From: an uncultured Lentisphaeraceae bacterium
GTDB lineage: Bacteria; Verrucomicrobiota; Kiritimatiellia; RFP12; UBA1067
Length of the DNA stretch: 64,000 nt
Direction of reading: 5' to 3'
Assembly (NCBI GenBank): GCA_964386385.1
Contig: CAYLRN010000001.1
Coordinates: 172,706 to 236,705, forward strand
Shown here: positions 3,186 to 57,182 of the stretch, piece after piece
How the letters are laid out: every line of letters starts with the position of its first letter
Position numbering within the stretch: the first letter of the stretch is position 1
Notes under the pieces: generated by a model
What the model was told of the DNA's origin: nothing
The model's database searches: none
Seen by the model: only the letters and a program-made list of their open reading frames with translations
Translations under genes and position numbers: made by a program

Positions 3186-3188
3186 GTG

Positions 3189-3482: not shown

Positions 3483-3625
3483 CTGTCGTTCCCTTTCGCC
3501 GCCCCTTGGGGGCTTTGATGGTGCGTATTATAGCACAAGGTGGTTTCACCGCAACGGCCCAAACGTATTTTTACCGCGTTTTATTTTTCCCTCTACGCCC
3601 TCATCGGCGGCGGTGGTATAATCGG

Positions 3626-6700: not shown

Positions 6701-7552
6701 GTAGAGCGAGTCGTACTTGCTGAAGCCGACCTGCGCCAGGACCGCCTTGACGTGTCCGCCGGACTGGCGGAACTCGCCGGAGTCGACGACGAAGACGCCG
6801 TTTGTGAAGACCGCGCCGTCGCCAAAGACCACCTTCGGCGCGCCCGGCTGCGTGAGAAGCAGATAGCTGCCTCCGCCACCCATGTTGACGACGACGCCGG
6901 GGAAGACGTCCTTCCAGTCCGCCTTGTCGGTGAACGTCAGTTCGAGCCGGGCGCTTCCGCTCCAGCGAAAGTCCTGCGCCCAGACGCCAGGTTTCGCCAG
7001 GCGCGCGACATTGTGTCCGCCGGACGCGAAGCGGTAGCCGAGCGTCCCCGCATAGGCCGGCGGCGCATTGTGGCAGGCCAGCACGGCGTTGGAGACTACG
7101 AGTTCGGAATTGCCGCCGATGGCGGCGTTGAAAAAGACCTTTGCCAGTCCGAAATCCCATGTCTGGTCCGCGGCCGTCGCCAGGCGGACGCTGAACGTGA
7201 GGTTGGAATCCGCCCCTGCGGCATGGCGGGCCGTCAGGCCGTCCGCGCCCAGGGCCAGCGTCGTCGTCGCGCCGGCCGCCGCGTTCGTGCCGACGACGAC
7301 GGCGCCGTTGGGGACGTTCGTGAGGACGAGGCCGCCTAACGCGAGGCTGGCGGAATTCGTCAGGGCAGCCATTCCCGGCCGCGCCGCGAAGTCGACCCAC
7401 GCGACGTCGTCCTCCCCCGGCAGGACACCGCCCGCCCAGTTCGCCGCGACGGCCATGTCCGCCGATTCCGCGCCGGAGAACCTTACGACCTCGCCCCGCG
7501 CCATCGCGAGAGCAAGCCCCATTGCGACTGCACAATACGCCGCCTTGACCAT
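3797..7552 (-). CDS. Giant secreted/surface protein with autotransporter-associated beta-strand repeats and two LamG (concanavalin-A-like) domains
   Basis: I place the start at ATG 7552, preceded by AAGGAGG, which gives the signal peptide MVKAAYCAVAMGLALAMA. The 131 Arg-rich codons upstream in the track ORF are rejected. PATR-like segment: KKGAGTLVLGDASAFTGELAVDEGTVKILG. LamG-type endings: LAEIRFYPGRTLTWSEKAAV..AGKYG and IAAVRLYDSFIDDAAVKALTDAWVAKYG. Confidence 0.8.
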   Translation of the reverse strand: MVKAAYCAVAMGLALAMARGEVVRFSGAESADMAVAANWAGGVLPGEDDVAWVDFAARPGMAALTNSASLALGGLVLTNVPNGAVVVGTNAAAGATTTLALGADGLTARHAAGADSNLTFSVRLATAADQTWDFGLAKVFFNAAIGGNSELVVSNAVLACHNAPPAYAGTLGYRFASGGHNVARLAKPGVWAQDFRWSGSARLELTFTDKADWKDVFPGVVVNMGGGGSYLLLTQPGAPKVVFGDGAVFTNGVFVVDSGEFRQSGGHVKAVLAQVGFSKYDSLYELTGGRFDATTFYMGNGSSTWYANPKFVLDGGTANLGTLWMGDRGGHQLVSHDFTVKGGTLAVDETSSSQPGDDGLILAFSRRDNGTVVNSPSAAYRQSGGAVRVPRVALGGATTFGADRQIPVTNSYCTFTLSGGLFEIGSRGFSATEGRWNSGATTDSWYRVELRGGTLAATADSFSELDTIVPSGASATVDTRDRRFAMRAPLKGCGVLTKKGAGTLVLGDASAFTGELAVDEGTVKILGAPMSSSSSATAAGCVAWRAEDAVAALADGDDVVAWPDSTASRTAVVPTFSSNPTTVPKASLDEFNGRPGVVFDHSALKVVAEENPLAGQTNWTLAVVFKTATPGLGWDNSWYMETGILGREQPGCVNDWGLVFGANGHVGAGFGVAKLNKDYSVYTKARSYADGRPHVAIYAMAGDGTLTLSVDGETVERAVDLDETTRSPRNAADIYFGVQNIADADAPYKFAFTGALAEIRFYPGRTLTWSEKAAVGVELAGKYGAPASVYAVGELDDDSAQGDVPPMGEKVPAAIPDDGAAAWDADSIVDVADGAEVTEWLSTDGTRTANKANVTRITGTSDLSATSYASTWKGPVLRKGAINGHNSVYFNGNNTSLGIPAGDSPASGKVAWTAAVVFRTSTNGNMPDSVTMNRNFFASSVMVGAELPTSNRADWGLGLWGEGNRVMAGYGGKNVSTRGDQSTVSRVWDLADGQPHCAVCSFDTDTGLMRIVVDGVFTHMRLLAAGSGGTPREAMRVLVGSGNCDFNYKGEIAAVRLYDSFIDDAAVKALTDAWVAKYGILTPSQFPHASDSGACGLAATNVTVAAGASLVLPTTTNRPFALAAGQRLAVAGSVRGTLGVAAGGVFDMVAATPEALDELWLQSGGVLRASFSQSAPVPLAKFKSEKGAVVQMADRPVKLPPKFPLFAYSGDEPDAADLACSVSGAAPNSALVFENGRISVVTAVGTLLILR

Positions 7553-7625
7553 TTCAAGCCTCCTTGCCAGAGAATGCCACCCGCCGCGCTTGGCGGAAAC
7601 TGCAGAGTCCGAATGCATATGAAGC

Positions 7626-7653
7626 ATTATATCCGTTTTTTTTTTCTCGTCAA
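7626..7653 (-). promoter_or_regulatory. Sigma70-type promoter TTGACG-N16-TATAAT whose spacer contains an A10 homopolymer
   Basis: The minus strand reads caaTTGACGag(A)10cggaTATAATgcttc. The -35 is at 7653-7648, the -10 at 7631-7626 and the T10 run on the plus strand at 7636-7645. It lies about 70 nt upstream of ATG 7552. Confidence 0.65.
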
Positions 7654-7677
7654 TTGCGTTCGCCATAAATGGGCGAT

Positions 7678-8526
7678 TTATGGGAGTCGGACGGCGACTT
7701 TCTTCGGCGGCATGACGTCGGGGAGACCGAGGGCCAGGTACTTCGCCCGCGCGTAGTCGTTGTACTCCAGCTCCACGCGAGCGTCCTTTGCGATGCCCAT
7801 CCCGTCGAGGTCGCGATGGCGCGCGGCAAGGTCTGCGCCGTCCGTCAGATTGGGAACGACGAGCAGGCGGACTTCCATTTTCGCCTTCGCCGCGACGAGC
7901 CGGGCGAGATTGCGCAGAATGAGCTCGTTTGATACGCCTGTGCATCGGCGATGGAGATCAGCGCCGTGCGCCTTGTAGTCGGGAAGCCACATGTCCGTCA
8001 CTGGAAGCATCGCCTCGATTGCGGCTGGCGGCGCGTGAAGCGACGTGTCCAGGCAGGTCCGCAATCCCGCCGCGCGGAAGCGCGCGAAGAGCTCCGCCGC
8101 CCATTCCCAGAAGAAGAGCGGTTCGCCGCCGGAGAGAGTGACGCCGCCGCCCGTCCGCTCGTAGAACGGCCTGTCTTCAAGCGCCAGCTCGACGATGCGC
8201 TCCATTGTCATCGGCTTCCCGTAGAACTTCAGCGCACCGGTCGGACACGTCGCCTCGTCGTTCGTGCAGACCTTGTGTCGAACGCACTTGTGCCGGAAGC
8301 GCGCCAACTGCGGCTTCGGGTCGATCGACTCCGGGTTGTGGCACCACAGGCATTTCAGCGGACACCCCTTGACGAAGAACGTCGTCCTCATCCCCGGGCC
8401 GTCCCATATTGCCATCCGCTTCACGTCGAGAAGCAGCGGCGTACGCAGCGGACGGCCGGCAGCGAACGCCGGCGCCAGAGCACATGACGCAACGCCTGCC
8501 AGGAATCCCTTGCGAGTCGTCTTCAT
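7678..8526 (-). CDS. Glycyl-radical enzyme activating protein (radical SAM) with a Tat-like N-terminal leader
   Basis: The core LLLDVKRMAIWDGPGMRTTFFVKGCPLKCLWCHNPE (CX3CX2C) is typical of PflA-family activases. ATG 8526-8524 overlaps the GRE stop (ATGA). The N-terminus is MKTTRKGFLAGVASCALAPAFAAG. The accessory ferredoxin-like Cys motifs look reduced (CVRHKVCTNDEATCP). Confidence 0.85.
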   Translation of the reverse strand: MKTTRKGFLAGVASCALAPAFAAGRPLRTPLLLDVKRMAIWDGPGMRTTFFVKGCPLKCLWCHNPESIDPKPQLARFRHKCVRHKVCTNDEATCPTGALKFYGKPMTMERIVELALEDRPFYERTGGGVTLSGGEPLFFWEWAAELFARFRAAGLRTCLDTSLHAPPAAIEAMLPVTDMWLPDYKAHGADLHRRCTGVSNELILRNLARLVAAKAKMEVRLLVVPNLTDGADLAARHRDLDGMGIAKDARVELEYNDYARAKYLALGLPDVMPPKKVAVRLP

Positions 8527-11393
8527 TGCGCGATTCCCTCCGCGCGCCGGATGTAGGCCTCCTGCTCCTTTCGCGGCATGTCGTTCCAGCGGACGTTCCA
8601 GCCGCACACGCGCACCTGCAGGTTCTCGTATTTTTCGGGCCGCCGCTGGGCGTCGCGCAGCGTCTCCACGTCCACGACGTTGAAATGGATCGCGCATCCG
8701 CCGTTCGCGAAATACGTCTGCACCAGCGCCTTCATCGCGTCAAGCCCCTTATCGCCTCCCACGGCGTACGGGAGAAGCATGACGTCGAGCGGGAAGTCGC
8801 CCGGCAGGTCGCGGGCGTCGAGGTGGGCGACGGATAGCAGAAGCGCCGTAACGCCCTCCGTGTCGGCGCCCATCGTGGGGGAGACGTTCTTGCTCATCTC
8901 CTCGCCGGCGCGGCGTCCGTCCGGCGTCGCGCCCGTGGCGCGGCCAAGGTCGATGAACTGCTTCGCGCAGTGTCCGCTCGCCTCGAACGCGCCGTTGCGC
9001 GAATTCGGGACGCCGTTCAGGCATTTAGCGTAGGCCTTGACGATTTCGTCGGCGAGATGGTTCGCCTCCGCGTCGTTGTTTCCCCACTTGCGCTTCGAGC
9101 GCTGCATCCTGAGGCGGAGGTCTTCACGCCCTTCCCAGTTCTTCGCCATCAGCGCGCCGAGTTCGGCAAGCGACATCTCACGGCGCTCGTAGACGATTTC
9201 CTCCACGGCGAGCAGCGCGTCGACCGCGGTGCCGAGGCCGGTCTGGAGGACGGAGGAGAAGTTGCCGCGCCGAGTGCCGTCGACGAATGCGTCCTTCCCG
9301 GTCATGACGCTGTATTCCGTGGCAAGCGAGAAGAGAAGGGACGGGTTGACTTCGGCAAGAGTCCTCTCCCACTCGAACGCGAGATTGCGGCTCTCGACGG
9401 TCGTCTCCGCAAGCCGCGCCAGGTAGGCCCGCCTGAACGCCGCGAAATCGGCGGCGGCGAAAGTCCCGTCCTTCGCGCGATCGAGCAGTTCCTCGACGAC
9501 CTTCAGCAGATTGACGTGGGAGATGCCGGTGCCGTTGTAGCCGTCCCTGAGGCCGAACTCGTAGCAGCCGGCGACGACCATCGCGCGGCAGTCCTCGTCA
9601 GTGCAGTCGCGTATCTTGCCCTTCAGCACGCGCGCCATCGGCTCTTCGCCGCAGAAGACGAGCGAACGGTGTCGGCGCGCCATGTCGAGGGCCTTACGCC
9701 AGACCCAGTCGGGGGTGGAGGCCGCCATCTTGAGCTGGACTTTCGGCGTCGGCAGGGCGAGTTCGTCGTGCACTTCAAGGAGAATGCGCGAGACCTCGTT
9801 GTACGCGCTCGTGCCGTCGGCGTTCGTGCCGCCGAAATAGACGGGCTGCCCCCAGTAGTTGTCGATCGACCCCCACTGCCACCAGAAGTGGCGGAGCTGT
9901 TCGCGGAACTCCGCCTCGGTCGTCCGCCCCGCCGCGATGTCTGCGCGGTAGTAGGGCGTAAGGAGGCGGTCGAGGTTGCCGAGGGAGCGGACCTGGAAGC
10001 TGTCGAAGTTCTCGCTCATCACCCAGTCGAGATAGATGAAGAGCAGGACGTCATAGGCCGTCCGCGGCGCGCCCGCGCGCAGGCGGCGCAGGGAATCGCG
10101 CTCCTTCTCGAGGCGGGAGACGCGCCGCGCATGAACCGCGCCGGGCGGGTCCGCCGCCTCGCTCCGCAGGGCAGCCAGACGACGCTCCGACTGGACGACG
10201 AGGCGGTCCAGATGGCGAAGGACGGCGTCTGCGGCCATGAGACGGCTTTCGTAGTAGGCGTTTCCGTCCTTCCAGTTCGCCAGCAGACGTTCCCGGAGGC
10301 CGGGGAAGCCGAGCGGCAGAATAGCGTCCCAGTCGGGGACGGAATGGTCGTAGTCCTTCCACATGTTCCAGCGTCCGGCCTTGCGCCCGGCATGGATCTT
10401 CGCCGGCACGTCCGGACACGTCCGGGCGTCCACCTCCCCGCTGCGCTGTCCCATGATGGAATTGAGAGGATGCCCGAACCTGTGCTTCGTCCAAAGCGCG
10501 TAGGCGGGAAACCAGTCAAGGGGCGAGACGTCTATCGCCGCGCGGTCGCAGCAGAACGCGAAGAGCTTAGCCTTTACGACGCTCCACGGCATTCTGCCCT
10601 TGCTCTCCTCCGCAAGCCTTGAGAGCGCCCCGCGCATCTCCTCGCGCTCAAGGCCGGTGGCGGGGTCTGCGACAGGGGTCCGCCACTTGAAGCGAAGGTA
10701 GTCCGCCTCGTTCGCGAACGGCGCGATCGTCCGTTCCTCGTACGGGGTCAGGACGACGTTGCGCAGACGTATCGCCACCCGTCCCTGCGGATAGGGCTGC
10801 GTCTGGAAGCCGATGCGTCCCGCGCGCGGAACTGTCACGAAGCAGCGGCTCACCTCCACTCCGTCCCACGAACACGCGACATCTCCCTCGACGCTGCGGA
10901 CGGCGAGGCGATGCCAGGCGCCGGGCGTCCGTCGCGCCGCTACGGCGCGGGGGATGCGATGGTAGCCGACTCCCGACATCGGACCCGACTGCGGCGTGGC
11001 GCCGACCATCAGCCCCGGCCATCCCCACAGGTCGCCGATGTCCGTCGTCTTCAACTGGAATTCAAGACCCGACGCCTGGTCGCCGTCGCCGACAAGAACG
11101 GCCAGCCCTCCGTCGCCGAACGAATCGTCGGCGTACTGTATTTCGGCCGTGAGCTTGAAATCGCGCCAGCGTTCCCTCGTCGTCAGGACGAGCGGCCTGG
11201 CGCCGTTCATGGTCAGGACGCCGTCCGCCAGGCTGAACGTCTCCGCGACGTCGGCGGCGGACTTCGCCATCGGGCAGTCGAAGTCCGCCAGCGTCCGCCC
11301 GGCGAACAGATCCACCGGCGGAAGCGCGGTCGGCGCGGCAAGTCCCGTCCATGCGGCAAGGACCCCGGCGGCGATGGCCATTTCAAGTTTCAT
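8523..11393 (-). CDS. Glycyl radical enzyme (PFL2/dehydratase-like) fused to an N-terminal signal-like leader and a DUF1080/3-keto-disaccharide-hydrolase-like domain
   Basis: AAGGAGG lies 6 nt upstream of ATG 11393. The C-terminal glycine loop is NLQVRVCGWNVRW and the Cys loop is VVAGCYEFG. The N-terminus is MKLEMAIAAGVLAAWTGLAAP, followed by DGVLTMNG...WRDFKLTAEIQY...GLEFQL...WHRLAVRSVEGDVACSWDGVEV...GRIGFQTQ...VAIRLRNVVL, the DUF1080 pattern. Confidence 0.85.
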   Translation of the reverse strand: MKLEMAIAAGVLAAWTGLAAPTALPPVDLFAGRTLADFDCPMAKSAADVAETFSLADGVLTMNGARPLVLTTRERWRDFKLTAEIQYADDSFGDGGLAVLVGDGDQASGLEFQLKTTDIGDLWGWPGLMVGATPQSGPMSGVGYHRIPRAVAARRTPGAWHRLAVRSVEGDVACSWDGVEVSRCFVTVPRAGRIGFQTQPYPQGRVAIRLRNVVLTPYEERTIAPFANEADYLRFKWRTPVADPATGLEREEMRGALSRLAEESKGRMPWSVVKAKLFAFCCDRAAIDVSPLDWFPAYALWTKHRFGHPLNSIMGQRSGEVDARTCPDVPAKIHAGRKAGRWNMWKDYDHSVPDWDAILPLGFPGLRERLLANWKDGNAYYESRLMAADAVLRHLDRLVVQSERRLAALRSEAADPPGAVHARRVSRLEKERDSLRRLRAGAPRTAYDVLLFIYLDWVMSENFDSFQVRSLGNLDRLLTPYYRADIAAGRTTEAEFREQLRHFWWQWGSIDNYWGQPVYFGGTNADGTSAYNEVSRILLEVHDELALPTPKVQLKMAASTPDWVWRKALDMARRHRSLVFCGEEPMARVLKGKIRDCTDEDCRAMVVAGCYEFGLRDGYNGTGISHVNLLKVVEELLDRAKDGTFAAADFAAFRRAYLARLAETTVESRNLAFEWERTLAEVNPSLLFSLATEYSVMTGKDAFVDGTRRGNFSSVLQTGLGTAVDALLAVEEIVYERREMSLAELGALMAKNWEGREDLRLRMQRSKRKWGNNDAEANHLADEIVKAYAKCLNGVPNSRNGAFEASGHCAKQFIDLGRATGATPDGRRAGEEMSKNVSPTMGADTEGVTALLLSVAHLDARDLPGDFPLDVMLLPYAVGGDKGLDAMKALVQTYFANGGCAIHFNVVDVETLRDAQRRPEKYENLQVRVCGWNVRWNDMPRKEQEAYIRRAEGIAQ

Positions 11394-11435
11394 GATACCT
11401 CCTTGAGTTCAATTGCCCCTGTGAATGGCGTTTCG

Positions 11436-14400
11436 TCAGAAAAGGCGGTTGGAGAGGAAGCAGGAGGCGACGACGTGGCCCTTGACGATGAATGTCGAGA
11501 CGGGGATGCGCATTCCGGTGAACTGCTTGAACCCCTGCAGCCACTGCCCCTTCAGCTCCAGTTCGAGGTCGCCCGTCTCGGCGCGGAACGAGACGACGCA
11601 CAGTTCGCGCGGCGAATAGCGGATTCCGGTGCCCAGGGCCTTCGAGACGGCCTCCTTCGCGCACCAGAAGCGGATGATGGCGCTTGGGGTGTCGACGGCG
11701 TTCATCGCCAGATCCTGCTCCTCCGGAAGGAAGACGCCGCGCGCGAATTCGTCGGAAAGATACCGGTCGAAGGCCTCCACGTCCACGCCGACATGGGCGT
11801 TGACCGCGACGGCGGCCATGATGAAGCGGGCGGTGTGGGCGATGGAGAGGTCGAAGTCGACGTCGCTGCGCATGTGGTGCAGCCACGGGCCCGTGACACG
11901 GGGCTTTCCGCTGGGGTCGGAATAGACCTGCACGTCGGCGTCGCTCCAGCGCGCCTGGTAGTATCTGTCCAGAAAGCGGCGGACCGCCTCCTTGGCGGCG
12001 ACGCGGCCGAAGAGCCATTCCGTCCGGCGCGCCACGCTGCCCTTCTCCTCCATCTCCGCGAACTCGTGGCGTTCGGTGCGTCCGAGGACGATGTGCGAGA
12101 GGGTCTTGAGCCAGAGTTCCTCGTTGCGTTCGAACATGGGGTAGTCGACGTCGGTCAGGACGGCGGTGGCCATCGCAAGGCCGGTCGCGCCCATGCGCTC
12201 CTCCGGGAGGGTGTGCGTCAGGTAGGTGCGCGCCGGTTCGAGGAGCATCTTTCGGTATTCGTCCGGCACGCGCTCGGTGTATTCCTCGTAGCCGCGCAGT
12301 TCCATGACAAGGTTTCCGTTGCCGTCGGAGACGAATATGTCGGAGATGAGGGACGTGGGGGTGACGCCGGTGTTGCGCAGATAGCAGTGCAGGCGGCGTC
12401 CGACGGGATGGGCGAGCGAGTGGAGGGAGAGGCCGCGGATGCGGAACGCATATGAAATCGCCCCGTGGAAGCGCTCGTGGCTGCGCCAGAGCTGGAAGCC
12501 GTCCGTGATCGCGGCCATGAGCTGCGGGTTGAGCACCCAGACCGGGACGGTCGTGTGGGACACCGCCCTGTCCGATTCTGGCACCTCAACTTCGTAGTCG
12601 AGCCCCGCCTCGCTCCATCGGTCCGCGCGGCGGATGCACTGCAGAAGCGAACCGGAGAAGAGCATGTCGGGATAGATGTCGCTCGTCTCCCAGTGGACGT
12701 CCCTCGGCGTAGTGCCGTGCTCCGGCGGCGTGAACGCCTCCGGCGGAAGGGGACCTTCGGAAAGGAGGAACGTCCCCTCCATCGCAGGCCACGTCCAGGC
12801 GGAACCGGGCGTGTCCTCGCGCACCTGGACGCGCACGGCGACGCGCGCGGAGGCGGAAGCCGCGACGCGCTCGGCCCGGACGAAGAGGCGGAGGCGGCCG
12901 TTCCTGAATGCGGCCATGCGCCGGCGCTGCAGGTCGTTCACCGCGACGACGTGGAGGCCCGGCGCCAGCTGCTGGGCGAGCTCTGCCATGATCTCCGCCG
13001 CGCCGACGAGCGTCAGCGCCGTAAACCCGCGAAGCGGCTCAAGCCCGGAGTCGGCGTGGTCGGGATGCGAGAGCTGCGACGTCCCGAGGGCGAAGTCGGC
13101 GAGGATCGGCTCCGCCTTGAGGTCGAACGTCTTCACCATCTCGATCGATATGCCCTGCTGGTGGGAGACGACGTCCATGTCTGAAATTAGCGGACACACG
13201 GCGCCGAAGCCGAACTGCTGTTCGCGGCGCCGCGCCTGGGCGGCGATGACGGCCGCGCGCACCGCGGCCCGGCTGCGGCGGTCCGACGCGCCGCCCATGG
13301 AGGGCGCAAGCGCGGAGACGGCCTGCGGCGGCGGGACGTCCACCGTCAGGGCGAGGCAGGGGAACTCGCGCGAAAGCGGCATCTCCGCCTCCATCCTGAC
13401 GTTGAGCGAGAGGGGCGACGAGAAGTCCAGAAGCCGGCATCTGCGCTGGCGGAAGAGAAGCGAGGGGTCGACGGCGGCGCCAAGGGCGGCGAGCTGGCCT
13501 ACGACGTGCATCAGCTGGACGAGGCCCACGCGGTGGATGGAGTCCGCCGCCATCACGACGCGCTCCTCTCCGCGCAGGACCTCGTCGGCAAGGCCGCAGC
13601 ACGTCCCGCGCGGGCCGACCTCCAGGAAGACGCGATAGCCGTCGGCGTACATTCTGCGAATCGTGTCCGCGAACATGACGGGCCGCACCCATTCCTCCGC
13701 CGCCTCGTCGCGCGCCTTGCGGACGCGGGGGTGGAGCGGTTCGGCGCGGCCGCACGAATAGACGGGGAACTGCGGCTTTTCGTCTATCCAGTTGGACGCG
13801 AACTTGCGCAGGAGCGGAAGCACCCCACGGCAGCCCGGCGTGTTGAACGGCCTGTCCACGGAAAGGCGGCGGACGCGCGCCCCGGCGGCGGAAAGGCGCT
13901 TCACGACGTCGGCGGCGCATTCCGGCGCGGCGGCGATTGTCATGTGGCGCGGGGAGAGGCGATACGCCACGCCGACCTTGTCAGGCGGGAACTCGCCCAA
14001 CGCGCGTTCCGTTTCGCCGGGGCTTGCAGAGACGACGGAGGCGAGGACGCACTTCGGAAGCCCCGAATGCCCCACCGCCGTGTTCACCACCTTGTACGTC
14101 TCCTGCAGGAATTTGAGCCGGTGCTTGCGCTCGAACTTCCCGAACATCCCGCTTGCGGCGAGGGCGCTCAAATCGCCTCCGGAAAAGCCCGTCGCCCCTT
14201 CCGGCACGATTCCGAGCGCGCGGAAGAGGCGCGTCAGCGCCATGTTGGCGGAATACGTGGAGACGACGGCCTCGGCGTAGCCGCCGGCCGCGAAGACGTC
14301 CGCGTCCCCGCGGTAGTACGGCGCCGGCGGGAATACGAACGACGACGGCTGGAAGGGGCCTGCGCCCTTCAGCGCGGCCTCGAGCTCGTCGAAGGGAAGA

Positions 14401-14819
14401 CGGCACTCGCGGAAGCGCACGGTGACGTCGCGAAGCATGTCGGGATAGAACGACATTGCGCCGGGATAGATGAACGCCAGCTTCCCGTCCGCGCCCTCGC
14501 CGAGGACGTGCCTGGAGAAGAAGTACGTCCCCGACTTGTCGCGCAGACGCTCCGTCTTCGCGTCGGCGATCCGCGCCGCGGCGGAGACGAGGCGGCCGCG
14601 CAGTTCCGGGACGTCGGAGACGACGAGCGCCAGAACCGCGGCCTTCTCGCCGTCAGCGAACCGGCGGGCGCACGTGTACGCGACGTCGCGCAGCTCCACG
14701 CCCGTGATCTGGTCGATGAACGACACAAGGCCGTTCACCTCGGACACAAGCCCATCCCTGTCCGCCGCGCCGAGCAGGACAAGTTCGCTTCCAAACCATT
14801 CGCTCAGGTCCGCGCTCAT
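11436..14819 (-). CDS. PKS-like multidomain protein: acyltransferase-like, PKS dehydratase-like, and C-terminal 4'-phosphopantetheinyl transferase domains
   Basis: AT-like region: IYPGAMSFYPDM, GFSGGDLSA (GxSxG), VDRPFNTP, FLEVGPRG. Hot-dog/DH-like region around ILADFALGTS...PLRGFTALTLVGAAEIMAE. PPTase motifs: GKPRV, FDLSIAHT, VGVDVEAF, FWCAKEAVSKALG. I see no ACP (DSL) motif. The ATGA-type overlap at 14816-14819 couples it to the upstream KS-like gene. Confidence 0.75.
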   Translation of the reverse strand: MSADLSEWFGSELVLLGAADRDGLVSEVNGLVSFIDQITGVELRDVAYTCARRFADGEKAAVLALVVSDVPELRGRLVSAAARIADAKTERLRDKSGTYFFSRHVLGEGADGKLAFIYPGAMSFYPDMLRDVTVRFRECRLPFDELEAALKGAGPFQPSSFVFPPAPYYRGDADVFAAGGYAEAVVSTYSANMALTRLFRALGIVPEGATGFSGGDLSALAASGMFGKFERKHRLKFLQETYKVVNTAVGHSGLPKCVLASVVSASPGETERALGEFPPDKVGVAYRLSPRHMTIAAAPECAADVVKRLSAAGARVRRLSVDRPFNTPGCRGVLPLLRKFASNWIDEKPQFPVYSCGRAEPLHPRVRKARDEAAEEWVRPVMFADTIRRMYADGYRVFLEVGPRGTCCGLADEVLRGEERVVMAADSIHRVGLVQLMHVVGQLAALGAAVDPSLLFRQRRCRLLDFSSPLSLNVRMEAEMPLSREFPCLALTVDVPPPQAVSALAPSMGGASDRRSRAAVRAAVIAAQARRREQQFGFGAVCPLISDMDVVSHQQGISIEMVKTFDLKAEPILADFALGTSQLSHPDHADSGLEPLRGFTALTLVGAAEIMAELAQQLAPGLHVVAVNDLQRRRMAAFRNGRLRLFVRAERVAASASARVAVRVQVREDTPGSAWTWPAMEGTFLLSEGPLPPEAFTPPEHGTTPRDVHWETSDIYPDMLFSGSLLQCIRRADRWSEAGLDYEVEVPESDRAVSHTTVPVWVLNPQLMAAITDGFQLWRSHERFHGAISYAFRIRGLSLHSLAHPVGRRLHCYLRNTGVTPTSLISDIFVSDGNGNLVMELRGYEEYTERVPDEYRKMLLEPARTYLTHTLPEERMGATGLAMATAVLTDVDYPMFERNEELWLKTLSHIVLGRTERHEFAEMEEKGSVARRTEWLFGRVAAKEAVRRFLDRYYQARWSDADVQVYSDPSGKPRVTGPWLHHMRSDVDFDLSIAHTARFIMAAVAVNAHVGVDVEAFDRYLSDEFARGVFLPEEQDLAMNAVDTPSAIIRFWCAKEAVSKALGTGIRYSPRELCVVSFRAETGDLELELKGQWLQGFKQFTGMRIPVSTFIVKGHVVASCFLSNRLF

Positions 14820-16186
14820 CGCCGTTCCTCGCCTTCTGGTTCCTCCTCAAGCACCACCGCCGCCTTTCGTCCGCCCAGGTCGGAGACAAGCACGACCGCG
14901 CGGCGCGGCGACGACGGGTCGCCCGTGATCCACGGCCGCGGCTCGTTCAGCAGGTACACCGACGAGTTCGCGCTGGAGAGCTGCGCAAGCGGCGTCGCCA
15001 CCGGCATCTGCGGCGGAAGGATACGCCGGCGCAGGGCGATCGCCGCCTTGAGCAGTCCCGCCGCCGCCTCGGCGCGGAAGCAGTGCCCCACGTTCCCTTT
15101 CACGGAGCCGATGCCGACGAGCGGCCCGCCGGGGCGGTGCTCGCCCCAGACGGACTGCACCGCCTCCACTTCCGCGGCGTCCATTTCGGGGATACCGCAC
15201 CCTTCCGCCTCGACGAGCCCGATCGAGTGGAGCGGCGCCGCCGCGCGCTCCGCCGCATCCGCCAGCACGTCGGCGGCGGAGAGCTCCCCGCAGGAGACAG
15301 ACCTGACGAGCGCGTATATGCGGTCGTTCGCGGCAAGCGCGTCCGACTCGCGCTTCAGGACGAAGAACGCGCCGCCCTCGCCGGGAATCGTGCCGTGGGC
15401 GGACCGGTCGAAGGGAGTCAGTTCGGAGTCCTTGGAGAAAAGAACTTCGCCGGAGACGCCCTGAAGGAAGGCTCTGCTGAGCGGCGGCGTCAGGGCCCCG
15501 GCCAGCGCGACGTCCGCCCGGCCGCTGCGAAGGTCGTCCATCGCGCCGCGCAGCGACGCGACGCCGCTGAGAAAGCCGCCGTCTATCGTCGTCGCCCCGC
15601 CGGAAAAGGAGCATTCGTGCGCTATCCACGAGGCTATCCTGTGCCCTGAACCGGAAAGGAAGCTGGCGGCGTTCGCCTCCGGGAGGGAGGAAAGCAGCTT
15701 CTGCCTTATGTTCTCGAACGATTCCTGCGGGGCGTTGCGGAAGAACCTGCCGATGATCTCCATCGTCTGGTCGATGAAGAACGTGTGGTCGAGCCAGTTG
15801 ACCGTGGAGGCGTTGAAAGGCGGCGCGTAGCCGAAGCGCACCGTGCCGCGGTGCAGTTCGCGCCCATGCGGACGCATCCCCGCATCGACAAGCGCGTCGA
15901 ACGCCAGCTGGACGGCGAAGTAGAGATCCTGGTTTTCGCCCTTGTTTATCTGGCGCGGGAAGTTCTGGTCGCCGGGGACGCAGGCGTAGAGCCGCCCGAG
16001 CGTCCCGCCGTGCGTCGGATACGGGCGGTTGAAGAGGTTCTTCGCGCCCGGCAGCAGCGCGGTGTCGAACCCAAGCGGCGCGATGCCGCTCTTCTGGTGC
16101 ATTATCTGCCGCCAGAAGACGCCCGGGTCCGCCGCCTGCGCGAAACGGCATGACACGCCCACGATTGCTATTGGAATGCTTTGCAC
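14816..16186 (-). CDS. Beta-ketoacyl synthase-like protein lacking the canonical active-site Cys
   Basis: KS fold: IPIAIVGVSCRF..., ...GSVKGNVGHCFRAEAAAGLLKA. At the DTACSSS position it reads DGGFLSG. At EAHGTG it reads EAEGCG. I prefer the GTG start at 16186 (MQSIPIAIVG), which has TATACT 6 nt upstream. The track's ATG at 16270 would overlap the purN promoter. Either start is possible. Confidence 0.75.
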   Translation of the reverse strand: MQSIPIAIVGVSCRFAQAADPGVFWRQIMHQKSGIAPLGFDTALLPGAKNLFNRPYPTHGGTLGRLYACVPGDQNFPRQINKGENQDLYFAVQLAFDALVDAGMRPHGRELHRGTVRFGYAPPFNASTVNWLDHTFFIDQTMEIIGRFFRNAPQESFENIRQKLLSSLPEANAASFLSGSGHRIASWIAHECSFSGGATTIDGGFLSGVASLRGAMDDLRSGRADVALAGALTPPLSRAFLQGVSGEVLFSKDSELTPFDRSAHGTIPGEGGAFFVLKRESDALAANDRIYALVRSVSCGELSAADVLADAAERAAAPLHSIGLVEAEGCGIPEMDAAEVEAVQSVWGEHRPGGPLVGIGSVKGNVGHCFRAEAAAGLLKAAIALRRRILPPQMPVATPLAQLSSANSSVYLLNEPRPWITGDPSSPRRAVVLVSDLGGRKAAVVLEEEPEGEERR

Positions 16187-16232
16187 GCCACCAGTATAGC
16201 AAAAACGACCGCCGTGTTGTAGACACCGGCAA

Positions 16233-16262
16233 TGGACAACAGGCGGCACGTTGTTGTACAAT
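16233..16262 (+). promoter_or_regulatory. Candidate purN promoter TGGACA-N18-TACAAT
   Basis: TGGACA at 16233-16238 and TACAAT at 16257-16262, followed by the RBS AAGGAG and ATG 16283. Confidence 0.45.
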
Positions 16263-16282
16263 AGCCGCATTCAAGGAGAACC

Positions 16283-16897
16283 ATGGCAACTCTAAAACTC
16301 GGAATACTCGGTTCGGGCTCGGGCTCGAACATGCAGTCGATCGTAGACGCGATCGAGGCGAAGAGCCTCGACGCCGAAATCAGGCTCGTCCTCGCCGACG
16401 TCCCGGACGCGAAGATACTCGAACGCGGACGGAGGCACGGCATGCCGTCCATGTACCTCGACTGCGCCCCGTGGAAGACGAAACTCGAAGGCCAGGCGGA
16501 AGATCGCTGTATCGACCTCCTGAGGGGGCACGGCTGCGACACCGTCGTCCTCGCCGGATTCATGCGCATCGTCAAGCCGAAACTCCTGGCGGCGTTCCCC
16601 ATGCGCGTCCTTAACGTCCACCCCGCCCTTCTCCCCGCGTTCCCGGGCGTCCACAGCTGGACGCAGGCGCTCGACTACGGATGCAAGGTGGCGGGCGTAA
16701 CCGTCCATTTCGTCGACGCCGGCACCGACTCGGGCCCGATAATCGTGCAGAAGGCCGTGCCCGTCCTTGAAGACGACACGCCGGAGACGCTCCACGCGCG
16801 AATCCAGGAGCAGGAGCATCTCGCGTTCCCGGAGGCCCTGCGCCTTCTGGCGGCCGGCCGCCTTTCCGTGGAGGGGCGCCGCGTCCGGATCAAATAG
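16283..16897 (+). CDS. purN: Phosphoribosylglycinamide formyltransferase
   Basis: MATLKLGILGSGSGSNMQSIVDAI..., VVLAGFMRIV, LNVHPALLPAFPG and VHFVDAGTDSGPIIVQ are classic PurN motifs. Confidence 0.9.
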   Translation: MATLKLGILGSGSGSNMQSIVDAIEAKSLDAEIRLVLADVPDAKILERGRRHGMPSMYLDCAPWKTKLEGQAEDRCIDLLRGHGCDTVVLAGFMRIVKPKLLAAFPMRVLNVHPALLPAFPGVHSWTQALDYGCKVAGVTVHFVDAGTDSGPIIVQKAVPVLEDDTPETLHARIQEQEHLAFPEALRLLAAGRLSVEGRRVRIK

Positions 16898-16951
16898 CCG
16901 TCCGCGCATCCGTGTTCCACAAGACAGGAAACTGAAGAAGAAGGAAGAACC

Positions 16952-18733
16952 ATGAACGGTGCAACGCTGCTGCTCATCGCCACTGCGTGTTTTCTCGTCG
17001 GCTACTTCATCTACTCGAAATTCGTCGGGCGGCTGCTCGGCGTAGACCCGTCGCGGCCTACGCCCGCCGTCTCGATGAACGACGGGGTGGACTACGTGCC
17101 GGCGCATCCCACGGTGCTGTTCGGACACCACTTCGCGGCAATCGCCGGCGCTGGGCCGATCGTCGGCCCCGTCCTCGCCGCCGAGTTCGGCTGGGCGAGC
17201 GTCGCGCTGTGGGTCGTCCTGGGATGCATATTCATAGGCGCCGCGCACGACATGATCTCGCTCTTCCTCTCCGTCCGCCACAAGGGCGAGTCGATCGGCA
17301 GCGTGATCGGCGACATCCTCGGCCGCCCCGGCCGCATCCTGTTCCTCCTCTTCAGCTGGTCCGCGCTCGTCCTCGTCGTCGCCGAGTTCACGCGGCAGAT
17401 CTCCGTGACGTTCGTACAGGACCCGTCCATCGCCTCCGCCTCCCTTCTCTTCATCGGAGAGGCAGTCCTCTTCGGCGTATGCGTGTACCGCCTGAAGATG
17501 AACGTCCTCGTCGCCTCGCTGATATTCGTCCCGGTCATGTTCGGCTTCGTCTGGCTTGGCGGCGTGATCCCGATCGACCTCATGAAGTGCCATGGCTTCA
17601 CTGCGGCGGAGTACTGCAGAGCCCTCGCCTCCGGCACACCGGTCCCGGCCGCGATGGCCGCGGCCGCGCAGAGCGCGCAGACGATATGGACGCTCGTACT
17701 CCTCGCCTACTGCTTCCTCGCCTCCACCCTGCCGGTGTGGCTTCTCCTCCAGCCCCGCGACTACCTCAACGCGTATCTCCTCTACGCGATGATGATCCTC
17801 GGCTTCCTCGGCGTCTTCGTAGCCCACCCGACGCTGCAGACGGACGCCTTCACCGGCCTTTCAGCAATCGGACGCTCCGGCAACCTGGAATACCTCTTCC
17901 CGTTCCTGTTCGTGACAGTCGCCTGCGGCGCCTGCTCCGGCTTCCATGCGCTCGTCGCGAGCGGAACGAGCGCGAAGCAGCTGGACAGCGAAAGGAGCAT
18001 CCGCCCAGTCGCCTACGGCGGAATGCTGCTTGAGGGCGTCCTCGCCGTGATCGCGCTCGTGGGCGTGGCGGGGTCGTTCGCAAGCCAGGCGGAATACGTG
18101 AAAACCCTCCAGGTCACGGAGCCGGTGAACGTGTTCGCATCGACAATCGCCGGCTTCGTCCAGAAGATGGGCTTCCCGGCGGAGACGGCGCGGTCGTTCA
18201 TGCTGCTCTCCGTGTCCGCGTTCCTCATGACGAGCGTCGACGCCGGAACGCGCCTTGCGCGGTTCTCGTGGCAGGAGTTCATCGCCGCCGCGGCGCCGGC
18301 GGAGGAGCGCAAGGAAAAGCCGAGCATCCTCTACCGCGTCTGCCACAACATGTACTTCGGCACGGGCGTCGTCATCGCGCTCGTCTGCGCCCTGCTCCTC
18401 GGCAGCCCGAAGGCGGCGAAGTCGCTCTGGACGATCTTCGCCAGCGCAAACCAGCTGCTCGCGGCCCTGACGCTTCTCACGGCCACGCTCTGGTTCGTCC
18501 GCAGCAAGAAGCCGTGCTGGATCACGCTCGTTCCGACGTGCTTCATGATGACCGTCAGCACGTACGCGCTCATATCCCTCTTCCGCGCGTCCATTGCCGG
18601 CGGGAACTGGACTGTCGTGGGCGCGACGGGATTCCTGATTCTCGTGGCGATCGCGCTGATCCTCTTCTCGCTCTCGTACGTCTACACGCACTTCGCGCCC
18701 GCCGCGAAGAAAGACGCAAACGGCGTCCGGTGA
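16952..18733 (+). CDS. cstA: Carbon starvation protein A (CstA family peptide/pyruvate transporter)
   Basis: 593-aa polytopic membrane protein. YVPAHPTVLFGHHFAAIAGAGPIVGPVLAAEFGW is the CstA signature region. Confidence 0.9.
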   Translation: MNGATLLLIATACFLVGYFIYSKFVGRLLGVDPSRPTPAVSMNDGVDYVPAHPTVLFGHHFAAIAGAGPIVGPVLAAEFGWASVALWVVLGCIFIGAAHDMISLFLSVRHKGESIGSVIGDILGRPGRILFLLFSWSALVLVVAEFTRQISVTFVQDPSIASASLLFIGEAVLFGVCVYRLKMNVLVASLIFVPVMFGFVWLGGVIPIDLMKCHGFTAAEYCRALASGTPVPAAMAAAAQSAQTIWTLVLLAYCFLASTLPVWLLLQPRDYLNAYLLYAMMILGFLGVFVAHPTLQTDAFTGLSAIGRSGNLEYLFPFLFVTVACGACSGFHALVASGTSAKQLDSERSIRPVAYGGMLLEGVLAVIALVGVAGSFASQAEYVKTLQVTEPVNVFASTIAGFVQKMGFPAETARSFMLLSVSAFLMTSVDAGTRLARFSWQEFIAAAAPAEERKEKPSILYRVCHNMYFGTGVVIALVCALLLGSPKAAKSLWTIFASANQLLAALTLLTATLWFVRSKKPCWITLVPTCFMMTVSTYALISLFRASIAGGNWTVVGATGFLILVAIALILFSLSYVYTHFAPAAKKDANGVR

Positions 18734-18755
18734 AAGACGGAAAGGAGACGACGGC

Positions 18756-21700
18756 ATGAAGACGAAACTCCACAGCATCGGCGCGATCGCCGCGCTTGCG
18801 GCGTGTGCCGCCGCGACGGCGGCTGGCGAAAGGCCGCCGATAACGGGCGACGACGCGAAGCGTCCATACGAAATGGTGTGGGCGAACCGCGTGAAGGACC
18901 TGCACGAGCCGTTCGCGCCGCTCACTGACGCGGCGGGCTGGACGGTCGAGGCGAAGAACGCGGTCGCGACGTTCGAGCGTTCGCGCGACCTCCTTCTCTT
19001 CGGCGACGGCACGTGTCGCCTCACGTACCGCGCCACCGGAGAGCGCCCGGTCGTCACGCTCCGCCCGCCGCAGCCGATTCCGGTGAAGGGCCCGTTCGAC
19101 GTCGTGACGTGCTGGGGCTACGGCAACAACCACAACGGCTACGCGCCCGACCCGTCCACGCCGTCCGTGACCGTCACGGCCAATTTCAAGGACGCGGACG
19201 GCAGACCGTTCGCCGTCAAACTGCTCCACGTCAACTACAAGGAGTGGTTCCAGGGATGGACGCGCCTGTCGCCGGAACTCGCCGAACGGGCGAAGCGCGG
19301 CGCAGCGCTCGTCTCGCTCTCCGTGACCGGAGGCGCCAACAGGGAAGACCGCGCAATCCACCTCAACAGCCTCTGCGCGTTCGTCGAAGAGCTAAAGCCC
19401 CTCTCCTTCGCGCCGCGCGCGAAGCGTCCGAACCGCGTCTTCCCCGACGCCCCCGCCGGAAACAACGTCGGAACGGGACTTCTCCCCTTCCCGAACACGC
19501 CGCTCGGCGCGACGCCGAAGACGCGCCCCGCGCCAGAACTTGAAATCCGGCTTCCATCGCAGGCGTCCGACTGGTCGGGTCTCGCGTTCCGCTGGAAAGG
19601 CGGCGACTGGCGGCGAGTGGCGGACGGCGGCGGCCTATGGTTCGCCGATCTGCCCGCCGGACGCGAAAGGGCGAGGGGCAGGAGCCGTCGCCGCGTGGAG
19701 ACGGAGACGAGCGTCGTCACGAACCGCGCCGCGCCGCTGGACGTCACGCTGACCGGACGCCTGGCGCCCGGCGGCGACTTCGTGCGCGCCCGCTTCCACG
19801 TGGAAGGACGCTCGCTCGTCGTGGACGTCGCGACGGACGCGAAGGACGTCCGCGAAGTCCGCTTCGGCGCCTGGGCCGATCCGCCCGCCGACGCGCAGTA
19901 CGTCCGCCTCCCATACTACTCCTACGGCAACTGGGGCGCCGCCGAGCGCCCTGGCGTAATCGCCACGGAACGGAACGGCTGTCCCCTCTTCCACGCGGCG
20001 ACGATGGACTGGACGCAGTCGAACGCAAGCACTCCCGTCGGCGGCTCGCTACGCTGGGACGGCGCGCTGGCCGCCAACGGCGGAACGCTCTACGCCGAAA
20101 AGACAGACGGAACGCGGAACGTCTGCCGCGAACGATTCATCTACAGCTTCTCGGACACGTTCGCCGACGTCCTCCCCAACGTCCCCAACCCGCCCAGCCC
20201 CTGGCGCCATGTCACCGGCACTGGCGTCTGGCGCGCGCACGGCGCCGGCAACCGCGAACGCGACAAGGCGTACTGGCGCGGAGTCCGCGCGCGCGGCCTC
20301 AAGCACGTCATTGTCACCGACCACGAGACCTGCTGGCGCGACGGCGACGAGAGCTTCACGTTCAGGACCGACCCCGCGCCCAAAAAGGGCGGCGACAGGG
20401 GAATGCACGACTACGCCCGCGTGATGATCGACGAACTCGGATTCGTCTACGGCCCCTACAACAACTTCACCGACTTCGCGCCGGTCAACGCGAACTGGCA
20501 TCCCGACCGCGTGTCGCGGCGCGCCGACGGCTCATTCCAGACCGCCTGGGTGCGCTGCTACGCGCCAAAGCCCGCATACGCCGTCGAGGCGTGCGCCGAG
20601 TTCACGCCGATAAACCAGAGGAAGTTCGGCTTCAACACCGCGTACTGCGACGTCCACACCGCAGTGACGCCGTGGAGCCGGACGGACTTCGACGCGCGCG
20701 TCCCCGGCGCCGGCGCGTTCGCCTCCACGTTCTACGCGTTCGGCGAGATAATGCTGATCCAGCGGACGAACTGGCGCGGACCCGTCTACTCCGAGGGCGG
20801 CTTCCACTGGATGTACTGCGGCCTCACGGACGGCAACTACGCGCAGGACCAGAGCTACAACATATCCGCCAACCCCTGGCTCGTCGACTTCGACCTCCTT
20901 CGCCTCCACCCGCTCGCCTGCAACTTCGGCATGGGCGACGTCGGAATGTTCTATCCCGGCAAGTCCGCGCCGAAGGACGCCGACGAGAAGGTCGACCGCT
21001 TCCTCGCCGCGACTGTGGCGTTCGGCCACCCGGGCTTTCTCGTCCATTCCCAGAAAATGGAGGACCGCAGCTACTTCATGGTGCAGGCCCTCGCCGCCCG
21101 CTACACGCAGGCCGAGGCCGCCGAGATCCGCTACTTCGACGCGCACGGCGTCGCCCACGACACGTCGCGCGCCGTCCTGAACGGCGCGTTCAGGCGCTCG
21201 CAGGTGGCGGTGACGTACACGGACGGCACGTTCGTCGCGGCGAACGGGTCGCGGACAGAGCCGATGAAACTGCCATGCGGCGTCTGGCTGCCGCCGAACG
21301 GCTACTGCGGATGGACGGCGGACGGCGCCGTATTCGTCTTCAGCGGCCTCGTCGACGGCCACCGCGTCGACTGCTCCGTCTCGCCCGAATACGTCTACAT
21401 GGACGGCCGCGGCGTCGAGACGAAGCTGCCGTGCGGCACGTGCAAGGGCGCGATCGCGCGCCTGCGCGAAAAGGACGCCGGTCTCTGGCCCTCGCCCTCA
21501 ATCGCAGACTTCGCCGCGCGCAGCGCTCCGCCCGCCGGCGCATTCAAGCCGCCCGCCGCGGCGGCGGACGGCGCAATGGAGCTTCCGCCGCTCTTCTGCG
21601 TGGCGATGGAACGTCGCGGACAGGAGATGGAGGAGGTGCAGCCCGAATCCGGCGCATACGCCGGCAAGGGCGGCATGGCAAGCGGCGGCGCATGGAAGAC

Positions 21701-36407: not shown

Positions 36408-36441
36408 AACTGCCTTTTTCTGGTTGAAAAACGTAAGGGGC

Positions 36442-36470
36442 ATTTTATCAAATCCACTCCGCTTGTGCAA
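36442..36470 (-). promoter_or_regulatory. Promoter TTGCAC-N17-TAAAAT upstream of the long greA
   Basis: The minus strand reads TTGCACaagcggagtggatttgaTAAAAT. This leaves a leader of about 27 nt with the RBS AAAAAGG before ATG 36407. Confidence 0.55.
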
Positions 36471-36616
36471 CCTTGCAACGTCTTGGAGGCTTCCCGTTTT
36501 TTCACGGCCGGCAAGTCCATCTCGCGGCAACTCCCCGTTTCCGGCTTTCAGGGAGAGACAACCGCCCGCGGATTCAATGAAGCCCGTGGGTGATGGCGGC
36601 GCGGAAAATGAAGAGG

Positions 36617-40048: not shown

Positions 40049-40055
40049 GGTCTGC

Positions 40056-57176: not shown

Positions 57177-57182
57177 GGCGCC

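Follow-up and report, generated by a model that had tools for sequence, protein, structure and literature searches.

Integrated 4'-phosphopantetheinyl transferases (PPTases) are already known from the enediyne polyketide synthases (PKSE), from RerB, from some PfaC and PfaBC proteins and from the alpha subunit of fungal fatty acid synthase (FAS), and a pseudo-ketosynthase is known from PfaB. The 'Type M' secondary-lipid clusters encode a PfaBC homologue with a PPTase domain (PMC3098273, PMC13291983), and RerA/RerB of Rhodococcus form an iterative polyketide synthase (PKS) with a PPTase domain (PMC11563203). In PfaB of the gammaproteobacterial polyunsaturated fatty acid (PUFA) synthases a ketosynthase-like domain (KS') without Cys-His-His is retained as a scaffold beside an active acyltransferase (AT), the KS' being 43% identical between producers of docosahexaenoic acid (PMC12895367). 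For a full set of ketosynthase (KS), AT and dehydratase (DH) pseudo-enzymes, conserved and grouped about a PPTase that survives after deletion of the carrier protein, we found no description in the literature on this architecture or on the PPTases of Kiritimatiellia. Here we analyse a gene pair of this kind, located in a 64,000-nucleotide stretch of DNA (the window; positions 172,706 to 236,705 of contig CAYLRN010000001.1, assembly GCA_964386385.1) from an uncultured Lentisphaeraceae bacterium of the Kiritimatiellia. Its two proteins retain the KS, AT and DH folds, have very probably lost the catalytic residues of all three and keep intact PPTase motifs, and would thus represent a live PPTase on a dead KS/AT/DH set.

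Organization of the gene pair

The pair comprises a gene for a separate pseudo-ketosynthase (KS0) and a gene for a 1127-aa protein in which a linker domain (LD) is followed by AT0, DH0 and PPTase (PPT) domains, as follows (window coordinates).

14816-16270, minus strand: KS0 gene, 484 aa as drawn; stand-alone pseudo-ketosynthase of the type I PKS/Pfa type
11436-14819, minus strand: AT0-DH0-PPT gene, 1127 aa
14816-14819, minus strand: 4-nt ATGA overlap of the KS0 stop with the AT0-DH0-PPT start, from the coordinates of the open reading frames (ORFs)
14505-14819, minus strand: KS-AT linker domain, aa 1-105 of the 1127-aa protein; CurL-like_PKS_C/RhiE-like linker matches, NCBIfam, Foldseek
13485-14504, minus strand: AT0, aa 106-445; PF00698, PDB alignments, family columns, AlphaFold2 (AF2) and Foldseek
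13185-13484, minus strand: post-AT linker, aa 446-545; in the AF2 model a disordered stretch and one long helix
12210-13184, minus strand: DH0, aa 546-870; double hot-dog, weak PS-DH match, alignment to active relatives, Foldseek
11439-12182, minus strand: PPTase domain, aa 880-1127; PF01648, TIGR00556, two AcpS-like halves

The two genes are translationally coupled through the ATGA overlap, and the tight junction between them is repeated in most related loci. The linker domain was recognized from the CurL-like_PKS_C and RhiE-like linker matches in the precomputed annotation of homologues of the 1127-aa protein, from NCBIfam alignments to PfaA and PKS models that run from positions ~450-480 onward, and from the KS-AT didomains aligned with it by Foldseek; KS0, a separate protein, is expected to dock here.

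Folds and catalytic residues

KS0 matches both Pfam ketoacyl-synthase families (PF00109, N-terminal, 82.5 bits; PF02801, C-terminal, 70.7 bits), and its AF2 model (pLDDT 83.3, pTM 0.82) superimposes on PKS KS domains with a Foldseek TM of ~0.75, which identifies it as a KS of the thiolase fold. In the HMMER alignment to the KS structures 7zma and 6riw, DTACS is replaced by DGGFLS (Cys to Phe233) and EAHGTG by EAEGCG (first His to Glu356); KSNIGH reads KGNVGH, with Lys391 and the second His, His396, retained. No Cys-His-His triad is left. AT0 is recognized by PF00698 (Acyl_transf_1, 41.6 bits, cutoff 32.7) and gives Foldseek target TM values of up to 0.79 with PKS AT domains. Its alignment to solved ATs (HMMER) turns GHSxGE into GFSGGD, with the His lost and Ser213 kept in the window protein, the oxyanion motif GQGSQ into GAMSF and HAFHSP into RPFNTP, with Asn326 in place of the catalytic His, so that the Ser-His dyad is broken.

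DH0 scores 19.9 bits against PF14765 (PS-DH), under the cutoff of 23.7. It aligns over its full length with relatives that score above this cutoff, and Foldseek alignments of the 1127-aa model (pLDDT 81.7) to KS-AT-DH structures of PKSs and FASs extend for ~880-950 columns, through AT into the DH region. Compared with the catalytically intact relatives, DH0 has exchanged the His of (D/H)HTxG for Phe576 and the Asp of LLDAxGQ for Ala, and the His/Asp pair is gone.

The PPTase domain exceeds the cutoffs of both PF01648 (ACPS, 52.1 bits, cutoff 25) and TIGR00556 (51.2 bits, cutoff 45.35), and its motifs are intact: GKP971-973, SIAHT992-996, GVDVE1011-1015, WCAKEAVSKALG1052-1063 and WCAKEAVSKALG are all present. 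The best PDB matches of a profile of the domain were the PPT domain of fungal FAS alpha (4v58, E 3.6e-9) and AcpS (1e-8 to 1e-7), and GVDVE1011-1015 and WCAKEAVSK1052-1060 align with the GxDxE and (W/F)xAKEAxxK motifs of the fungal FAS PPT and of AcpS, which hold the residues for Mg2+ binding and catalysis. The domain is two-lobed, of the Sfp type; residues ~893-1006 and 1010-1108 each align to AcpS, and the AF2 model shows two alpha/beta lobes.

These alignments bear on a preliminary description of the locus that had read the motifs by eye. Both ORFs lie on the minus strand at the coordinates it gave, and every motif it quoted is literally present. Its register for KS (DGGFLSG, EAEGCG and KGNVGH, with only the second His kept) holds in the alignment to 7zma/6riw, as does that for AT (GFSGG, PGAMSF, PFNT) in the alignment to the solved ATs; the profile and structure alignments, which might have overturned both, instead confirmed the substituted catalytic positions. 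Its comparison of the DH pattern L.DH.V.G with LADFALG was right about the exchange of His for Phe, although the pattern is one character longer than the string set against it.

Among NCBIfam models the best matches of the two proteins are partial, to PfaA and type I PKS models. Since all of them fall far under the cutoffs, the pair is covered by no curated family model.

Two further features of the 1127-aa protein were observed. AT0 contains a loop, aa 150-178 (KGAGPFQPSSFVFPPAPYYRGDADVFAAG; ~14286-14372, minus strand), that ranks with the best-conserved segments of the protein, with F156, P158, F161, F163, P164, P165, Y169, R170, D172, A173 and D174 invariant (pattern F.PSSF.FPPAPYYR.DADVF). 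The loop adjoins the former AT active site and, despite its conservation, has AF2 pLDDT values below 50 at aa 162-173; it is a candidate interaction motif. DH0 carries a 6-residue insertion, PDHADS (aa 586-591; ~13047-13064, minus strand), in a low-confidence loop just past the former HxxxG; it is found in the window protein and its 98% identical relative, and in none of the other aligned members.

Search for a carrier protein

Neither protein has a match to an acyl carrier protein (ACP) or PP-binding family in Pfam or NCBIfam. With seven ACP sequences we searched every ORF of 45 aa or longer in the six frames of the window and of 88 related loci. The search recovered the ACPs of two loci with catalytically active relatives and found none in the 64-kb window or in the other 86 loci. 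The post-AT linker is the site that the ACP occupies in the relatives P0263, P0265, P0268 and P0320; in this AT-DH segment of the window protein, AF2 assigns pLDDT below 50 to aa 473-518 and a helix to aa 515-538, with no four-helix bundle. A hidden ACP is ruled out within the sensitivity of the Pfam/NCBIfam scans, the seven-query ORF search and the AF2 linker model, and the earlier statement that neither protein nor the vicinity contains an ACP stands on the same three lines of evidence. Nor were active KS, ketoreductase (KR), enoyl reductase (ER) or thioesterase genes found in the window or, for the 86 loci, within 8-10 kb of the pair.

Distribution, conservation and selection

Homologue searches returned 482 matches for the 1127-aa protein and 660 for KS0, with more than 120 full-length clusters (at 90% identity) in each case; these are 49-98% identical to the 1127-aa protein and 57-99% to KS0, and the named ones come from metagenome-assembled genomes (MAGs) of Kiritimatiellia. 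The 1127-aa protein is encoded by at least 133 species-representative genomes, the best 80 of which are mostly Kiritimatiellia-type MAGs, many from rumen, horse or human gut, together with environmental MAGs. Within the family, divergence reaches 34% identity with the architecture unchanged.

Residue states were counted in 121 family sequences, and loci were compared between the window and the 88 others. The column of the KS Cys is hypervariable (A/V/I/M/S/T/F). That of the first KS His is occupied by Asp in 109 of the 121 sequences, and the Lys and second His are kept. In AT0 the Ser column holds Ala in 74 sequences, Val in 26 and Ser in 20, and the His column is Asn throughout (121/121); the DH His column holds F, Y or A. 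Across the same sequences the PPTase motifs GKP, IAHT, GxDxE and WCAKEAxSKALG do not vary, D1013, E1015, K1055, E1056 and H995 are invariant, and the motif residues are present in all 89 loci. The intactness of the PPTase motifs, claimed from the single sequence, is therefore upheld by profile scores above the cutoffs and by invariance in the 121 members. The same holds for the unusual combination itself: a non-catalytic KS/AT/DH scaffold with an intact PPTase and no carrier is a family-wide state, and of the explanations offered in the preliminary description a scaffold fits best. Its suggestion of a divergent module that is still active is not supported, given nucleophile columns that are variable or fixed as non-catalytic residues.

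The dead KS, AT and DH domains are under strong purifying selection. Compared with the relative L089 (98% identity at the protein and 93% at the nucleotide level), dN/dS is 0.052 for AT0, 0.044 for DH0, 0.030 for the post-AT linker and 0.028 for PPT; the C-terminal 165 codons of KS0 give a dN/dS of 0 at a dS of 0.30. Mean pairwise identity in the family is 0.69 for PPT, 0.63 for KS0, 0.59 for DH0, 0.58 for AT0 and 0.53-0.55 for the linkers, the PPTase being the best-conserved part of the pair.

Origin and order of decay

An exhaustive HMMER search of 1.84 billion representative sequences found 732 proteins at E <1e-30. Beyond ~32% identity, nearly all of those among the 150 listed retain GHSxG and the His residues of both AT and DH, along with the PPT residues. 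Many of these distant relatives are 1600-1990 aa long, with a fused, strong-scoring KS, and some have a PP-binding domain between AT and DH; their ACP is either internal, with the PUFA-synthase motif LGIDSIKRVEILG, or encoded by a stand-alone gene immediately after. Locus L005, for example, encodes a KS, an AT-DH-PPT protein, a 103-aa weak ACP, a phosphodiesterase-family protein and two short-chain dehydrogenases/reductases (SDRs), and L004 has a similar set plus a 2781-aa PfaD/PfaA-like megasynthase. KS0 shares 30-34% identity with the active KSs encoded at the same upstream position, and it scores best against PfaA and PfaC. Judged from these relationships, the pair descends from an active Pfa-like KS + AT-(ACP)-DH-PPTase module of the PUFA/secondary-lipid kind. 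A LGIDSIKRVEIL-type carrier protein together with active KS, AT and DH, the hallmark of a Pfa synthase, is present in the distant relatives and missing from the pair. Because the best affinities are to PfaA and PfaC while the carrier and active sites are absent, the relationship to the Pfa family is one of descent and not of membership. The Pfa/secondary-lipid origin proposed in the preliminary description thus finds support in the PUFA-type ACPs of the active relatives and in the KS scores.

A neighbour-joining tree was built from 83 full-length proteins with the active loci L004 and L005 as root, and catalytic states were mapped onto it. The deepest clade of the Planctomycetes-Verrucomicrobia-Chlamydiae group (L078, L079, L081) has already lost the Cys of KS, the His of DH and the ACP, and keeps AT His-Ser...His. 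Both KS His residues are still present in the next clade, L049 to L064, whose AT reads Phe-Ser...Asn. The window belongs to the gut crown clade, where the first KS His has become Asp or Glu and the AT Ser mostly Ala or Gly. No member of the whole clade has the KS nucleophile, and all have the PPT residues. As read from the tree, the family decayed stepwise: losses of KS Cys, DH His and ACP came first, that of the AT His followed, and those of the AT Ser and the first KS His came last. The intermediates are extant, so the order of loss is readable from living sequences.

Genomic neighbourhood

Neighbour associations were taken from targeted tblastn searches, since clustering all ORFs against one another was dominated, in this high-GC DNA, by shadow ORFs in the wrong frame. 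KS0 lies directly upstream of AT0-DH0-PPT in 71 of the 78 assessable loci. The other neighbours vary between genera and are housekeeping genes (ispH, mazG, purH, dapF, asd, kdsB, a murG-like gene, ribosomal protein genes); no gene besides KS0 is conserved next to AT0-DH0-PPT throughout. The pair is a two-gene unit that travels in a core-genome-like setting.

In 12 of the 14 assessable basal and intermediate loci panB is directly upstream of KS0 on the same strand, ending 0-100 nt before it (L049, L051, L055, L056, L057, L061, L063, L064, L076, L078, L079, L081). The panB product, ketopantoate hydroxymethyltransferase, catalyses the first step in the synthesis of pantothenate and hence of coenzyme A (CoA) and 4'-phosphopantetheine. 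The tie of the pair to pantothenate synthesis is an ancestral one. In 31 loci of the crown clade a gene for a ~260-aa radical SAM protein of the KamA/EpmB family follows AT0-DH0-PPT at a distance of 0-130 nt, sometimes overlapping its stop codon (for example L002:13299-14081; also L030, L082, L024, L027, L046 and L048); it is not found in the window. Relative to KamA-family models the protein is truncated by 75-100 residues at its N-terminus, and its score is under all family cutoffs. It could be an enzyme of elongation factor P modification or a true partner of the pair; an aminomutase making a beta-amino acid for pantothenate is a more speculative possibility. The window also encodes an accD-like carboxyltransferase, which is consistent with malonyl-CoA and fatty-acid synthesis and therefore with a need for holo-ACP.

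A 1099-aa protein without Pfam or NCBIfam match is encoded ~2.5 kb from the pair (18756-22055, plus strand). Its 55% identical homologue in the distant locus L055 (L055:14338-18060) lies ~3 kb downstream of the pair there, which could be residual synteny or coincidence.

Genes flanking the pair in the window

In the window, whose GC content is 62-69%, real genes were told by third-position GC. The order on the minus strand is KS0, AT0-DH0-PPT, a 956-aa glycyl-radical enzyme (GRE), its radical-SAM activase and a large PATR-repeat protein; upstream of the pair, a purN-like formyltransferase gene and cstA are divergently oriented on the plus strand. ORFs 16292-17827 and 17861-19057 (both minus strand) had been candidates for upstream cluster genes and were rejected as shadow ORFs of the purN-like gene and cstA.

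The 5' end of KS0 is probably overextended, with the true start ~60-85 nt downstream of 16270 and the first 20-30 codons untranslated. This is judged from its homologues, which are 452-467 aa long (compared with 484 aa as drawn) and start ~20-30 residues later, from an AF2 pLDDT of ~30 for residues 1-29 (the doubtful stretch, 16186-16270, minus strand), and from a sigma-70-like site within that stretch (TGGACA-18-TACAAT, 16233-16262, plus strand), a promoter-like site for the divergent purN-like gene. An ATG at 16270 would leave an intergenic gap of only 12 nt.

Downstream of the pair lie the following genes.

8523-11393, minus strand: GRE, 956 aa
7678-8697, minus strand: GRE radical-SAM activase, follows the GRE

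The GRE gene is separated from the pair by 42 nt on the same strand with no terminator-like site between, and the two are probably co-transcribed in the window strain; the GRE has its own AAGGAGG ribosome-binding site. Window positions 7658-11433 (3.8 kb) are precisely absent from L089, in which the flanks are collinear at 93% and 83% nucleotide identity, and none of the 88 other loci has GRE or activase beside the pair. GRE and activase were accordingly rejected as pathway partners, being a clean strain-level indel, and the biosynthetic cluster implied by the preliminary description dissolves with them.

The GRE itself has an N-terminal 3-keto-disaccharide hydrolase domain (DUF1080, lectin-like; aa 27-200), an RVCGWN glycyl motif and a GCYE Cys loop, and its nearest solved relatives are dehydratase-type enzymes of the PFL2/PflD/YbiW group. 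For the giant PATR (autotransporter-repeat) ORF, 3797-7945 (minus strand), the ATG taken as its start falls within the activase gene; translation probably begins around 7540-7600 instead, which would fit the length of the L089 orthologue (1248 aa) and the strong promoter-like sequence TTGACG-16-TATAAT at 7653-7626.

Elsewhere in the window, a YafQ/ParE-type toxin gene (3189-3527, minus strand) is followed by a 154-aa ORF without family match (2724-3188, minus strand). Two paralogues on the plus strand, 40017-42080 and 56268-58943, combine a predicted AAA-ATPase (PF09820) with a PD-(D/E)XK nuclease (PDDEXK_9), the second having a 300-aa N-terminal extension. An 800-aa protein (34230-36632, minus strand) has GreA/GreB N- and C-terminal domains in its last 160 residues only; its 640-aa N-terminal part has no family match.

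Proposed function and alternative explanations

On balance it seems slightly more likely than not that the pair is the remnant of a domesticated Pfa-type module that now serves as a holo-carrier-protein synthase in trans, with AcpP as its likely client. A KS0 dimer and two LD-AT0-DH0-PPT chains would assemble like the core of a type I PKS. The PPTase would be the only catalytic part, using CoA and Mg2+ to transfer 4'-phosphopantetheine; because the ACP has been deleted from the module, it would have to act in trans, on one or more free-standing carrier proteins encoded elsewhere. The likeliest target would be AcpP of type II fatty-acid synthesis, which would make the pair a general, possibly the only, holo-ACP synthase. 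The dead domains, descended from ACP-binding enzymes, may provide a scaffold for oligomerisation and carrier-protein docking. Bacteria with one Sfp-type PPTase for primary metabolism exist, for example Pseudomonas aeruginosa with PcpS and cyanobacteria with Sppt (see also PMC5605751). That the pair is the housekeeping, and possibly sole, PPTase of this Kiritimatiellia lineage is a tentative suggestion, for which we see slightly less than an even chance.

Several observations weigh against this proposal. In seven loci there is room upstream yet no adjacent KS0, and the panB linkage is gone in the gut crown clade, to which the window belongs. With E. coli AcpS, Sfp and the pair's own PPT domain as queries, no separate acpS or sfp gene was found in the ~1.2 Mb of loci around the gene, a weak test of whether the genomes have one. 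The three dead domains, at a dN/dS of ~0.05 and with KS0 better conserved than AT0 and DH0, are more constrained than a purely passive scaffold would obviously have to be, and the invariant low-confidence loop at aa 150-178 is unaccounted for. The KamA-like neighbour may hint at an unrecognised function of the pair. Together, the constraint, the loop and this neighbour hint at more than passive scaffolding. The triple pseudo-enzyme could for instance be a regulatory or chaperoning machine that reads acyl-ACP, acyl-CoA or CoA status, or holds apo-AcpP, through its pockets and the loop, and that gates phosphopantetheinylation so as to couple pantothenate/CoA supply to fatty-acid synthesis; alternatively, the PPTase could have a target without an ACP fold. 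We regard these possibilities as rather unlikely.

Selection on the dead domains also bears on readings in which they do more than support the PPTase. New chemistry, or the sensing of ligands such as CoA, acyl-CoA or acyl-ACP, by which a new reaction would be catalysed or the PPTase regulated by lipid/CoA status, would suit the low dN/dS, the new residues fixed at old sites (the first KS His exchanged for Asp, the His-Ser of AT for Asn-Thr), and the position of the invariant loop beside the former AT active site; the KS fold has been re-purposed before, and SalC is among the structural neighbours of KS0. The former nucleophile positions (KS 233, AT 213, DH 576) nevertheless vary freely among hydrophobic or small residues, no new invariant polar cluster was identified, and such a function, being speculation, is unlikely. 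The pair could instead still take part in a secondary-lipid or polyketide pathway, with KS0 as chain-length factor (CLF) or gatekeeper, AT0-DH0 as docking platform, active KS, ACP and reductases encoded elsewhere, and the PPTase priming that ACP. Its Pfa-like ancestry, the strong selection and the intact AT Ser-His dyad of basal members speak for this, and non-catalytic KS partners are established in CLF and in the KS' of PfaB (PMC12895367). It is made improbable by the lack of ACP, active KS, KR, ER and thioesterase within 8-10 kb in 86 loci and in the window, by housekeeping neighbours that differ by genus, and by the death of AT and DH as well, which leaves no acyl chemistry to assist.

Two remaining explanations are effectively refuted. 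A common pathway of the PKS-like proteins with GRE and activase, suggested by the same strand, the 42-nt gap and the lack of a terminator-like site, is highly improbable given the indel relative to L089, the absence of GRE and activase beside the pair in the 88 other loci and the GRE's own ribosome-binding site. The least probable explanation of all is a decaying, functionless relic whose PPTase motifs have been kept only through shortness of time. It would be in keeping with the progressive loss of catalytic residues along the tree, and is opposed by the intact full-length ORFs of more than 120 clusters at 90% identity, found in the genomes of 133 species or more, by dN/dS values of 0.03-0.05, and by divergence down to 34% identity with unchanged architecture.

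The pair would thus offer a natural example of a whole KS/AT/DH module turned into pseudo-enzymes that selection has kept across hundreds of species' worth of divergence, with the PPTase as the sole surviving chemistry. If it is indeed a housekeeping holo-ACP synthase, an essential function of primary metabolism has been captured by a secondary-metabolism megasynthase, and in Kiritimatiellia of gut and rumen the pair would be an essential target specific to the lineage. Automated annotation names these proteins 'polyketide synthase' and '4'-phosphopantetheinyl transferase superfamily protein'; such names could make genome-mining surveys count a gene cluster that almost certainly makes no polyketide.

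Comparison with known systems

Among the described enzymes, PKSE (KS-AT-ACP-KR-DH-PPTase) and RerA/RerB resemble the family in having a PPTase integrated C-terminally after DH in a type I iterative PKS, where it primes the enzyme's own ACP. The window family differs from PKSE and RerB in having no ACP, no KR, three dead catalytic domains, a separate KS protein and no enediyne cassette nearby. Identity with PKSE was rejected on the missing KR and ACP, the separate KS and the dead active sites, and the enediyne-PKSE-like module considered in the preliminary description, which shares neither of the first two absences, is not the closest architecture. The PPT domain of fungal FAS alpha is likewise integrated on a megasynthase, but it primes the same-chain ACP of an active FAS.

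Free-standing PPTases compare with the C-terminal domain alone. AcpS is a 120-aa homotrimer, whereas the window PPTase corresponds to two fused AcpS-like halves, as in the Sfp type. PcpS and Sppt are two-lobed PPTases that yield holo-ACP, equal to the role proposed here from sequence for the window protein, yet they are ~230-250 aa long and bear no 1300-aa pseudo-PKS appendage.

The state of PfaB, a dead KS with an intact AT dyad, is matched exactly by the basal members L078, L079 and L081. In PfaB, however, the AT is active in a complete synthase; in the window protein the AT is dead as well, DH0 and PPTase are attached, and KS0 is well conserved (0.63). A close likeness is also seen to the active KS + AT-(ACP)-DH-PPTase synthases found in many phyla (Anaerolineae P0268, L004 and L005 among them), which have the same domain order with split or fused KS and 28-33% full-length identity, the same type of PPTase motif (hShxH/SIAH) and, in the split form, the KS gene directly upstream. 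Unlike the window family, these relatives keep Cys-His-His, GHSxG...H, the DH His-Asp and a PUFA-type ACP, and they adjoin SDRs, a phosphodiesterase-family gene and PfaDA-like megasynthases, which the window family is without; their loci resemble the 'Type M' secondary-lipid clusters (PMC3098273, PMC13291983).

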